Shown here: positions 2,342 through 12,999 of the stretch, in pieces
Layout of the letters: the number at the start of each line of letters is the position of its first letter
Position numbering within the stretch: position 1 is the first letter of the stretch
DNA from: a virus
Taxonomy: Duplodnaviria > Caudoviricetes
Length of the DNA: 64,000 bases
Reading direction: 5' to 3' (one strand)
Virus record (IMG/VR): IMGVR_UViG_3300028585_000020
Location: 1 to 64,000 of that record
Translations under genes and position numbers: made by a program
The notes under the pieces: generated by a model
Told to the model about the DNA's origin: nothing
The model's input: only the letters and a program-made list of their open reading frames with translations
Databases searched by the model: none

Positions 2342-2373
2342 AAAAAAAGGAGGTATGCCCGAAAGCACCCTCC
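2342..2373 (-). terminator. intrinsic terminator of resolvase operon
   Basis: GGAGG..TGC/GCA..CCTCC hairpin with 7-A run on + (U tract on -). Confidence 0.65.
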
Positions 2374-2463: not shown

Positions 2464-3123
2464 TTACCACCTAGCAATAATGTTTCGGACAGTCGAAGTA
2501 TGCCAGTTTTTACCCATAACTGTAAGTTTCTCTTGGGCATTCAACTCGTCAGCGATCTGCTTCAGAGTCATGCCTGATTTCTGGTAGGCTTGGATAGTCA
2601 CTTTCATACTTTGAGCGAAGGCATCAGCACGTTTCTTTTGAGATTCCTGTCCGAGCTTCTGAGCTTCCTTCAAGTTGACTCGGTTTCCCAGCACAACTCC
2701 GCGTGCTTTTGCAGCAGCTAGTCCCGCCTTGGTGCGGATACCAATCATCTTACGTTCCTTGACAGCAAGACCTGCAAAGACAGTCCCAATGAACTCGTCA
2801 GGGTTCGCACCAAGATCAATCGACATGACTAATTTCTTCTGATGCATCAGGTTGTCAATCACACTAAGGTCACGACTGCAACGGTCGGTCTTGGTGACAA
2901 CAACTTGAGCTTTCATCTGTTTTGCCATTGCCAAGGCCGCAGACATCACAGGACGATCACGGAGAGGCCAACTACCAGAGGCCACTTCATCCATAATTGT
3001 AACGATATTGTAACCGTTGAGCTCGGCCCAACGTTCAATCTCTGCTCGTTGCCCTTCAAGACCATTCTTGGACAGTCCTTGATGGCGGGTTGAGACTCGG
3101 CACACACCAATGATATTTTTCAT
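2464..3123 (-). CDS. serine recombinase (resolvase/invertase family) with C-terminal recombinase-type HTH
   Basis: N-terminal CRVST (catalytic Ser), DEVASG...DRP, VTKTDRCSRD, helix E ER.MI..RTKAGL, C-terminal IADELN...W..STV. Confidence 0.93.
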   Translation of the reverse strand: MKNIIGVCRVSTRHQGLSKNGLEGQRAEIERWAELNGYNIVTIMDEVASGSWPLRDRPVMSAALAMAKQMKAQVVVTKTDRCSRDLSVIDNLMHQKKLVMSIDLGANPDEFIGTVFAGLAVKERKMIGIRTKAGLAAAKARGVVLGNRVNLKEAQKLGQESQKKRADAFAQSMKVTIQAYQKSGMTLKQIADELNAQEKLTVMGKNWHTSTVRNIIARW

Positions 3124-3168
3124 GCTCTGCTCCTTGGAAGATATTTGATGTGCTTAGTCTCTCACAGT

Positions 3169-3624
3169 TTAGACAACCTGTAAAGGGGTATCTGAAAATT
3201 TTAGTCTTGCCAAAATCCTGCAAATCTGAGATGATGACCACTTACCACCTCGGGATGTACTTACACCTTTGACGTTAAGAATCTCAGCTGCCTTGCTGTA
3301 GCTGCCACCTTCTTCAATAGCTTTGTGCACTTCTGTCTCTACACTTTTAGCAAATTCAAGAGCACCTTCCTTAATAATCTCGGATGCCAAATGCCTGCAT
3401 TCGCCTAGTCTTGGATTACCCAGTACAACACCTCTTTCTTTAGCTCGTTGCAATCCAAGCTTCGTTAGCTCCACATGGTCGTCTCGACGTTTGTTGTATC
3501 CACCGTGAACTAGGGCATGACAACCTCCACACAGCGGGATTGTTTTTGTTCCTCCTAATGATTCAGGTATGACATGATGTTCTTCACTGGCAAGCCTGCC
3601 ACACTCAAAGCAATATTTTTCCAT
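3169..3624 (-). CDS. HNH endonuclease fused to serine-recombinase C-terminal DNA-binding domain
   Basis: CFECG...EEHHVIP..LGG....LCGGCHALVH, then TKLGLQRAKERGVVLGN...AAEILN...GKWSSSQI matching the neighbouring resolvase C-terminus; GGAG RBS before ATG 3624. Confidence 0.85.
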   Translation of the reverse strand: MEKYCFECGRLASEEHHVIPESLGGTKTIPLCGGCHALVHGGYNKRRDDHVELTKLGLQRAKERGVVLGNPRLGECRHLASEIIKEGALEFAKSVETEVHKAIEEGGSYSKAAEILNVKGVSTSRGGKWSSSQICRILARLKFSDTPLQVV

Positions 3625-3676
3625 AGATTCTCCGTTGTAAAAACAAAAGGACTCCTTTAGAGTCCTCAACGTAAGA

Positions 3677-3710
3677 ATCTTATCACCAGAGTTGCTTTAT
3701 GTCAAATCTT
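3677..3710 (-). promoter_or_regulatory. sigma70-like promoter with AAGATTTGACA -35
   Basis: On - strand: AAGATTTGACA, 17 nt, TAAGAT. Confidence 0.75.
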
Positions 3711-3714
3711 AACA

Positions 3715-3748
3715 AAATAAAAGCCCGCCAACATTCCTGTCAGCGGGC
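3715..3748 (-). terminator. intrinsic terminator
   Basis: - strand GCCCGCTGAC-loop-GTTGGCGGGC then TTTTATTTT. Confidence 0.8.
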
Positions 3749-3753
3749 CTGTG

Positions 3754-3912
3754 TCAATCATCGTACAAATCCCACAAGTCTTCTGCGGAGATTCCTAAGT
3801 TCATGTCTACGGAGTTCTGTAACAAGTTAGAGAAGAGTGCCGCCAAGGCTGCTTCTAGTGCGAGATTGCTGGCAACGTCTGCAACACCACTCTGTGGTTT
3901 ATTTTCAGTCAT
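3754..3912 (-). CDS. hypothetical protein (52 aa)
   Basis: Manually translated MTENKPQSGVADVASNLALEAALAALFSNLL...; TGATG coupling to upstream ORF. Confidence 0.6.
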   Translation of the reverse strand: MTENKPQSGVADVASNLALEAALAALFSNLLQNSVDMNLGISAEDLWDLYDD

Positions 3913-12009: not shown

Positions 12010-12999
12010 ATGGGAAGTAATAATCAACGTAAGACTAATGAACAGGCAATTTCAGAGTCCGTGTCTTTGCATGGCGATGCATACAGGTACGACAAGTTCA
12101 ATTACGTATCATCGAAGACTAAGGTTATATTGTTTTGCAACAAACATCAAGAATATTTTGAAACAATGCCATCAAGTCATCTGAGTCCTACACGCAAGGC
12201 AGGTTGCCCTAAATGCGGCAATGAGCGCAGTGCTGATGCTTGCAGAAGCAGTACAGAAGATTTTATAAGAAAAGCGAATGCTGTGCAAACAGATTCGGGC
12301 AAGGAGTTTGACTACTCCCGCGTGGAATACAAACTGGCAAGAACTAAAGTCGAAATTGGATGTAAGACGTGCGGAACATGGTTCATGCAGAGTCCAGATG
12401 TCCATTTGCGCAACAAGGGTTGTAGGACATGCATGAACAACAAGCTTGCTAAAGATCGGAGCCATACAAAAGATTATTTTGTTGAGCAAGCCCTGAAAAT
12501 AACTGGTGCTAAATACAATTACGATCTAGTTGAATATAAGAACGCACGGACTTACGTGGACATTCTATGTAATAATTGTGGTACGACATTTAAAAAGAAG
12601 CCCACCGAAATTCTTAATGGTCATGGTTGCAGGTGTCACGCCGAGCCAAGTGGTTATAGTTCCAGCGAGCCGGGGAATCTTTACATTATGCAGTGTGAAG
12701 GAATGGCCAAGATTGGCATCACTAATCTCAACCCTGAAGTCAGAGCCAAGGCCGTTAGTAAATCTTATGGTAAGAGTTTTCAAGTTATTGAATTCTTTAC
12801 CATGGATGGACAAATATGTTCCGACATAGAAACACAACTTATTGGGGAATTGCGAAATTCGTATGAAAGTCCAAAAGAAAAATTCTGCGGTTATACAGAA
12901 ACTTTCTACATGAATGATGTCACGAATCTCCGAAAACGAATTATAGAATTAAAGGAGATTTATGAGCAACGACAAGCCAATCTTTGCGCCATGCAGTGA
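12010..12999 (+). CDS. putative homing endonuclease: three Zn-ribbon repeats plus C-terminal GIY-YIG/T5orf172-like domain
   Basis: Three Y.Y..V.Y......V.I.C..C/H...F....H/I...GC repeats; LYIMQCEGMAKIGIT; overlaps terL start. Confidence 0.8.
   Translation: MGSNNQRKTNEQAISESVSLHGDAYRYDKFNYVSSKTKVILFCNKHQEYFETMPSSHLSPTRKAGCPKCGNERSADACRSSTEDFIRKANAVQTDSGKEFDYSRVEYKLARTKVEIGCKTCGTWFMQSPDVHLRNKGCRTCMNNKLAKDRSHTKDYFVEQALKITGAKYNYDLVEYKNARTYVDILCNNCGTTFKKKPTEILNGHGCRCHAEPSGYSSSEPGNLYIMQCEGMAKIGITNLNPEVRAKAVSKSYGKSFQVIEFFTMDGQICSDIETQLIGELRNSYESPKEKFCGYTETFYMNDVTNLRKRIIELKEIYEQRQANLCAMQ

Follow-up and report, generated by a model that had tools for sequence, protein, structure and literature searches.

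The His-Me finger group of homing endonucleases carries NUMOD, AP2 or HTH modules (PMC5714182), and DNA-binding domains have been found to be shared between homing nucleases and satellites (PMC10448857). In the vibriophage ICP1, the origin-directed chimeric nuclease Odn combines a T5orf172 nuclease domain with the RepA_N domain found in the replication initiator of a satellite (PMC8263062).

Here we analyse a phage locus, contained in a stretch of 64,000 nucleotides (hereafter, the window), in which a small protein joining an HNH domain to the DNA-contacting part of a serine recombinase is encoded next to a complete small serine recombinase. Similarly to the phage free-standing HNH homing endonucleases of the I-HmuI/T4 Mob type, the protein is small and modular, its single HNH domain being distinct from the DNA-binding module, and its gene is an intergenic, promoter-bearing ORF placed among DNA-metabolism genes and sporadic in close relatives. 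Unlike in these nucleases, the module is made of the end of helix E, the arm and the first part of the 'Recombinase' domain (PF07508) rather than of NUMOD, AP2 or IENR, the HNH core is nearest to the IscB/Cas9/McrA type, and homing is a predicted activity. As in Odn, a phage nuclease carries a DNA-binding domain homologous to that of a protein with a defined DNA site, by which it would be directed to this site, the target being here a putative one; unlike in Odn, the nuclease is of the HNH type and the role of donor-like protein falls to a serine recombinase whose gene is adjacent on the phage's own genome. With the small serine recombinases (gamma-delta/Tn3, Gin/Hin) and the N-terminal half of the large serine integrases, the nuclease shares the DNA-contacting C-terminal part of a resolvase; unlike them, it has neither the serine catalytic domain nor the dimer-forming part of helix E, and it cannot therefore recombine DNA. 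We consider it reasonably probable that the protein is a free-standing homing-type HNH nuclease with recombinase-type site recognition, its target, cleavage and homing being predictions. The kind of element is an ordinary one, i.e., a free-standing homing-type nuclease, with a targeting module that is undescribed and a relation to the neighbouring gene that is unusual.

Genome and organization of the locus

The source record was classified as complete by CheckV (88,632 bp), the window corresponding to its bases 1–64000. The phage is a virulent-type siphovirus (~89 kb), with genes for the large terminase, the portal, the major head protein, a 1883-aa tape measure, ribonucleotide reductase, DNA polymerase and a primase/helicase. 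Both genes of interest lie on the minus strand: the HNH nuclease gene, with its fused recombinase-type DNA-binding part (nt 3169–3624, 151 aa; ORF, family alignment and AlphaFold2 model with pLDDT 87), is transcribed first and is followed, after a spacer of 45 bp, by the gene of a small serine recombinase of the resolvase/invertase type (nt 2464–3123, 219 aa) with intact catalytic residues. The HNH gene start was taken as the ATG at nt 3624, which has GGAG 5' of it and is common to homologues, while the ORF list reported a TTG at nt 3669.

The interval upstream of the HNH gene contains several minus-strand elements: the intrinsic terminator that closes the upstream operon (nt 3721–3750), aligning with the terminator of the HNH-less relative L082; a strong sigma-70-like promoter, TTGACA-17-TAAGAT (nt 3677–3705), conserved in L157; and, between this promoter and the HNH start codon, a terminator-like leader hairpin with a T-run (nt 3647–3667), identical in L157, which may work as an attenuator holding nuclease expression low. 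An earlier note on this DNA had placed the HNH gene second, behind one promoter common to both genes. On the minus strand the order is reversed; the strong promoter is indeed found before the HNH gene, while relatives have a separate resolvase promoter between both genes, of which the window retains a weak one (TTTACA...).

Downstream of the resolvase, an intrinsic terminator formed by a GC hairpin and T7 (nt 2342–2373, minus strand) was read from the sequence and is conserved in relatives. A non-coding region of ~600 bp (nt 1740–2340, according to the ORF list and relatives) extends from there to the terminator of the plus-strand genes, at ~1713–1732, and is thus enclosed by convergent terminators; it contains the candidate site D, described below, together with conserved blocks. 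The region is C-rich on the minus strand, and its blocks are conserved in eight relatives; besides D, it may contain accessory recombination sites or an origin. A structured RNA was considered for nt 1740–2340 and rejected, Rfam giving no match to the region and the fold z-scores (-1.0 and +1.2) being not significant. Two 27-nt direct repeats (nt 1756–1782 and 1885–1911), 89% identical and 129 bp apart, each include the palindrome ACACT-N4-AGTGT, and a weaker third copy is present at nt 3883–3909; they could be iterons or binding sites.

The resolvase and the shared C-terminal part

The resolvase matches PF00239 with 75.5 bits (cutoff 23.3; E 5.8e-21) and PF07508 above cutoff, and residues R9, S11, D80, R81, R84, E123 and R130 do not vary among 13 relatives. 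As a single-sequence query the window resolvase retrieved no PDB chain at 1e-5; the profile did match, aligning to residues 2–150 of Gin and gamma-delta resolvase. On this sequence evidence, the neighbouring gene encodes a normal, bona fide small serine recombinase, in which a catalytic domain with the Ser nucleophile and the Arg/Asp/Glu set is followed by helix E and a C-terminal DNA-binding domain.

The adjacent, co-oriented genes with a common C-terminal part, and the peptide blocks quoted for them in the earlier note, were found as described: by BLASTP, residues 131–218 of the resolvase match the C-terminal part of the HNH protein with 33 of 88 positions identical (38%, E 2e-12). The alignment with Gin and gamma-delta resolvase locates the junction within helix E, in its C-terminal third, in agreement with the same note's view that a Zn-HNH domain replaces the serine catalytic domain and is joined within this helix, and the likeness then extends along the arm (GVVLGN) and the helical domain at the C-terminus. 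PF00239 is indeed absent from the HNH protein, whose likeness to the resolvase begins in helix E; of this helix, the nuclease keeps the DNA-contacting end, without the portion packing on the catalytic domain. The resulting module, made of the helix E end remnant, the arm and the helical DNA-binding domain (residues 50–145; nt 3190–3477, minus strand), is paralogous to the resolvase C-terminus by BLASTP and PF07508, evolves with a dN/dS of 0.19 (see below), and includes all the DNA-contacting elements of a resolvase subunit. The putative recognition helices, as read from the pairwise BLASTP, differ between nuclease and resolvase.

The HNH protein scores 22.6 bits with PF07508 (cutoff 21.1), the match being confined to profile positions 7–50 of 102. 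Foldseek search of its two-domain model against the PDB gave no match at E≤0.001, and a wider structure search retrieved only generic helical DNA-binding or helical-domain matches (Z 3.9–5.3), with a serine integrase and the Tn3 resolvase among the ties. Since structure searches were unspecific, homology of the DNA-binding part rests on sequence.

The HNH domain and its active site

The HNH (His-Me finger) domain occupies residues 1–45 (nt 3490–3624, minus strand) and has a CxxC...CxxC zinc site, as indicated by invariant residues, profile matches and the model. Eight residues, C5, C8, H16, H17, C32, C35, H36 and H40 (CxxC...HH...CxxCH...H), are invariant in 31 homologues, and the profile built from these 31 sequences matches the HNH domains of IscB (1.4e-7) and McrA (3.1e-6). 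In the AlphaFold model, a beta-beta-alpha unit (E14–17, E28–31, H33–39) is followed by a helix (residues 50–63) and then by the helical domain; model, invariant histidines (H16, H17, H36 and H40) and profile all agree with the beta-beta-alpha-metal fold that defines HNH/His-Me finger endonucleases, in which a catalytic His closes the first strand and the helix bears a metal-binding His or Asn. The Pfam HNH models remain under their curated cutoffs (HNH_5, 19.3 vs 27.5 bits; HNH, 15.3 vs 21.4 bits). According to the IscB/McrA profile alignment the Asn-bearing loop of the motif is shortened, and in the alignment of the 31 homologues the Asn of H-N-H is absent, an invariant Thr being found near its position. 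The N-terminal half is an HNH domain with a constrained active site, for which cleavage is predicted.

The sub-cutoff Pfam scores and the Asn replaced by a nearby invariant Thr would also suit a catalytically silent DNA-binding protein, in which the HNH unit would be a zinc-finger scaffold and which would act as a decoy or repressor competing with the resolvase at its candidate sites U and D; the degenerate resolvase paralogue occupying the same slot in L084 and L157 (see below) points in the same direction. We regard this explanation as highly improbable, given that none of the catalytic His-His, the helix histidines and the four zinc cysteines varies across 31 diverse members, that the nuclease half is the most constrained one (dN 0.038), and that the profile matches the active HNH domains of IscB and McrA.

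A second and unrelated HNH endonuclease gene (nt 12010–12999, PHROG 'endonuclease / HNH endonuclease'; 329 aa) overlaps the large terminase gene at the start of the latter (nt 12962), and its product could be either a terminase-associated HNH protein or another homing endonuclease.

Family size and gene neighbourhoods

The fusion is not rare, being a member of a large and unnamed family of ~145-aa proteins that is restricted to phages. A word-indexed search retrieved 37 relatives, all metagenomic, while an exhaustive search with the family profile across 1.84 billion cluster representatives gave 130 matches at E≤1e-30, nearly all of 140–155 aa and with end-to-end coverage, and 1601 at E≤1e-10. 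In the ESM Atlas at least 5 all-viral clusters, of 50–89 members each, have both PF07508 and PF01844. Literature searches retrieved no account of an HNH protein that carries a DNA-binding part of the serine-recombinase type, as the earlier note had supposed for the pairing; the architecture itself is frequent among database sequences.

When the region was compared by blastn with the GenBank phages nothing was matched, and by tblastn only the DNA-binding half was matched, in 'resolvase' genes of Phapecoctavirus. These ~150-kb coliphages (e.g., ESCO13, L001:2611-3282) have a gene for a small 'resolvase/DNA invertase', the C-terminal part of which shares 34% identity with the nuclease DNA-binding part; several records call this resolvase 'methionine ABC transporter ATP-binding protein', by its look a mis-annotation.

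For the census of gene neighbourhoods, 80 viral contigs were collected with the family profile, yielding 58 unique HNH-type nucleases, 34 of which have a detectable resolvase-type C-terminal part. A full resolvase is immediately adjacent in 16 of the 58 and missing from that position in the other 42, a count that is slightly uncertain since some of these loci have short flanks. The resolvase-adjacent nucleases fall in five lineages, namely the window clade (co-oriented or convergent genes), L028/L030/L034, L038, L048 and L075, and show three gene orders; in L038, L048 and L075 the nuclease gene is 3' of the resolvase, with stop and start codons touching or, as in L048 and L075, overlapping. 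The orphan nucleases adjoin the gene of the ribonucleotide reductase large subunit, a DNA ligase gene together with another HNH homing endonuclease gene, a homing endonuclease gene together with a methyltransferase gene, or an endonuclease gene, contexts that are classic for free-standing homing endonucleases. Co-occurrence of nuclease and resolvase is not conserved in these data, many resolvases of the clade also being without nuclease. The earlier note had proposed a two-component system, with the reservation that the fusion should not usually be met away from a resolvase; as an obligatory arrangement, this proposal is not supported by the profile search of viral contigs, in which most of the unique nucleases lack a resolvase neighbour.

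Sporadic occurrence, independent history and selection

Among genomes of the same synteny, the nuclease gene is carried by the window, L083, L085–L087 and L099, and is absent from L082, L088 and L089; the resolvase scan detected resolvases without nuclease in these three and in L092 and L094–L096. The genome with the closest resolvase (L082, 79% identical) lacks a block of ~950 bp that takes in the HNH gene as well as two small ORFs, and has its resolvase promoter directly after the upstream terminator, while in L088 and L089 the slot upstream of the resolvase is empty. In L084 the slot is filled by a degenerate resolvase paralogue, and in L157 by both a pseudo-resolvase and the nuclease. The two pseudo-resolvases (L157:2274-2909 and L084:5296-5916), located upstream of the true resolvase, are 32% identical to each other; both have lost the second Arg of DRxxR and that of L157 also the catalytic Ser. 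In L157, the pseudo-resolvase gene is located before the HNH gene and is equipped with a promoter of its own. These proteins may be regulators or decoys for the same sites.

The histories of the two genes are incongruent. In L004 and L009 the resolvases are 99% identical, compared with 66% for the HNH proteins, and in the paired-gene identity comparison the window HNH protein is closest to that of L002 (60%), while the window resolvase is closest to those of L003–L009 (59–63%) and only 43% identical to that of L002. Identity profiles and alignments show that DNA identity shifts sharply exactly at the HNH/resolvase junction, as with the homing endonucleases whose gene marks a boundary of genetic exchange (PMC10448857). 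A mosaic block of L004/L009 ending exactly at site D was considered and rejected, as similarity drops ~70 bp past the terminator, D itself forming a conserved island apart from the block.

Compared with L157, the closest relative of the window nuclease (82% identical), dN was 0.038 in the HNH half and 0.18, with a dN/dS of 0.19, in the DNA-binding half, dS being saturated elsewhere; amino-acid change is 4–5 times faster in the DNA-binding half than in the nuclease half. These comparisons indicate that both halves are under purifying selection and that the protein is functional, with a targeting half that evolves fastest and a gene whose movements are independent of the resolvase gene. Two marks of a free-standing homing endonuclease, namely an occurrence at a fixed locus that is sporadic and a history independent of the flanks, are both found here.

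Fast change of the DNA-binding half, and rapid allele turnover beside a near-identical resolvase, would fit an arms race over targets as well, and hence a nuclease of competition (exclusion) that cuts the recombinase sites of rival phages or satellites using a related serine recombinase, protecting its carrier without being primarily self-copying. The precedent is a phage nuclease that attacks the site of another element by means of a DNA-binding domain borrowed from it (Odn, PMC8263062; PMC10448857). We rate this explanation as rather doubtful: a rival element with a matching site was not identified, and homing would account just as well for a gene that is sporadically present at one fixed locus; the two readings overlap and are inseparable by sequence alone.

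Candidate resolvase sites U and D

Tn3-type resolvases are known to have a dimer-binding crossover site and an operator. The earlier note had pointed to nt 1740–2463 for the DNA recognized by the recombinase, and a candidate is indeed present there. Site D (nt 2211–2238), 226 bp past the resolvase stop codon, is a 28-bp imperfect palindrome of 13+2+13 nt, CAACCTGTAGACG-AC-CGCTTACAGGTTA, unique in the 88.6-kb genome, and is a candidate dimer-binding/crossover site with the classical serine-recombinase layout of two inverted 12–13-bp half-sites and a 2-bp centre. Sites of this layout, with a co-varying motif, occupy the same position (+226 to +271 relative to the stop codon) in L082, L083, L085 and L086, and D forms a conserved island with diverged flanks. 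The sequence also scores as a terminator-like hairpin; its co-variation with U, described hereafter, argues for a putative protein-binding site.

The half-site U (CAACCTGTAAAGG; nt 3174–3186, plus strand) matches a D arm at 11 of 13 positions, with 0 mismatches to the pattern, and none of 400 control windows was as good. Located 51 bp upstream of the start codon (ATG) of the resolvase gene, it overlaps both the -35 region of the promoter of this gene and the five final sense codons of the HNH gene, a position that recalls autoregulation at Tn3 res. Admitting at most one mismatch, the half-site has 4 copies in 88.6 kb, 3 of them at this locus. In L082, which also has a D site, U is CAAACTGTAAAGG and lies in the spacer of the resolvase promoter, while in L083, L085 and L086, again with a D site, it is ACATATCTAAACG and lies just past the -10 box; L160 has the exact reverse complement of the L082 U. 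By analogy with the Tn3-type resolvases, D is likely the crossover site and U the operator of the resolvase, both as candidates. A single full site was detected in each genome, and neither a res-like array of three subsites nor a second crossover site was identified.

The fourth half-site copy lies outside the window (G000, nt 78635–78647) and has one mismatch (CCACCTGTAAGCG). Another motif, AAATATCT, was evaluated as a repeated site and rejected, its count in the window being at chance level.

Relation between the nuclease and its neighbour

In four lineages the DNA-binding half of the nuclease resembles that of its own neighbour (31–61% identity). Out of 54 resolvases, the own neighbour ranks first in L048 (58–61% identity, E 6e-33) and in L038 (43–46%, E 3e-27, with a common insertion and tail) and eighth in the window (37–38%), while the L075 nuclease matches its neighbour in the arm region (31%, E 1e-4); the L030 nuclease has a C-terminal part with no relation to that of its neighbour. 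When the DNA-binding parts were placed on a tree, nucleases and resolvases were interleaved, with well-supported branches forcing at least 3 changes; a single origin of all nuclease DNA-binding parts was not rejected by the AU test (p 0.09). It is likely on these sequence data, if not proven, that adjacent paralogues underwent repeated exchange or gene conversion. We tentatively suggest, as a possibility in which we place limited confidence, that the HNH module repeatedly acquires, or homogenises with, the DNA-binding half of the adjacent recombinase, and would then target the recombinase's own operator/crossover site. If so, the target could not mutate away without crippling the recombinase, and would adjoin the nuclease gene; this would represent a new strategy, a selfish nuclease hijacking a protein-DNA recognition code, and phage serine-recombinase genes would be hot spots of break-induced mosaicism and inversion.

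The same resemblance to the own neighbour (38% in the window, 43% with the common indel in L038, 61% in L048 and 31% in L075) could instead reflect a functional partner of the resolvase, which would bind the same U and D and nick or cut there during the phage's own DNA transactions, alone or in a mixed complex, in roles such as concatemer or dimer processing, the start of recombination-dependent replication, or control of the direction of recombination. Adjacency to the resolvase in five lineages and three gene orders, the overlapping stop and start codons of L048 and L075, and the end of the HNH gene on the operator U agree with such a role. We nonetheless judge it unlikely, as most family members have no nearby resolvase, close relatives retain resolvase, U and D without the nuclease, and the two histories are incongruent, the nuclease keeping only the DNA-contacting end of helix E.

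A free-standing homing-type nuclease is the explanation that fits the evidence best. The earlier note had listed, among its possibilities, a homing nuclease using the recombinase's site recognition beside the recombinase cassette; of its options this one agrees best with the data, cleavage and homing being predictions. The recombinase-type module would bind a recombinase-type half-site, and the HNH domain, in place of the serine catalytic domain, would lie near the centre of the site and nick or cut there. Cutting would occur in co-infecting relatives without the gene or with a sensitive site variant, and repair from the nuclease-bearing genome would spread the gene and reshuffle its flanks, while the resolvase would act alone on the palindrome D and autoregulate at U. 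The intact active site, the size and phage restriction of the family, the orphan contexts, the sporadic locus, the incongruent history and the purifying selection all speak for homing. Circumstantially, so may the HNH gene ending on U and the co-variation of sites U and D with lineage. Against homing, the carrier genome keeps its own U and D intact, which would require immunity of the carrier to its own nuclease, and the putative recognition helix is unlike that of the resolvase, so that the nuclease may read neither U nor D. Moreover, the operon-like arrangement of L038, L048 and L075 could reflect functional coupling, and the pseudo-resolvase in the same slot of L084 and L157 hints at proteins competing for sites, i.e., at regulation.

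If the homing reading holds, the DNA-contacting part of serine recombinases would be a new targeting module of homing nucleases, and the protein a natural counterpart of the engineered recombinase/nuclease chimeras. The protein pair, with the candidate sites U and D, offers a test case for shared versus diverging recognition of DNA sites by a recombinase and a nuclease. Proteins labelled 'recombinase domain-containing' by annotation pipelines would, under the same reading, more likely be nucleases.

Rearrangements at the locus

The resolvase/nuclease locus is a rearrangement hot spot, and the nuclease reading may explain why the resolvase locus is one of mosaicism and inversion. In L091, L093 and L097 (corresponding to L010, L002 and L006), the resolvase gene alone is inverted with respect to the nuclease gene and both flanks, so that the HNH and resolvase genes converge, their 3' ends overlapping by 70–88 nt. 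The motif TTACAGGTT has exactly two copies in 64 kb (nt 3175–3183 and 2212–2220), which were considered as crossover sites inverting the resolvase gene and rejected: the end points of the inversion in L091, L093 and L097 are different, and nt 2241–2348 stays collinear. In L160, a block made of a methyltransferase gene and a 72-aa gene is located on the opposite side of the module.
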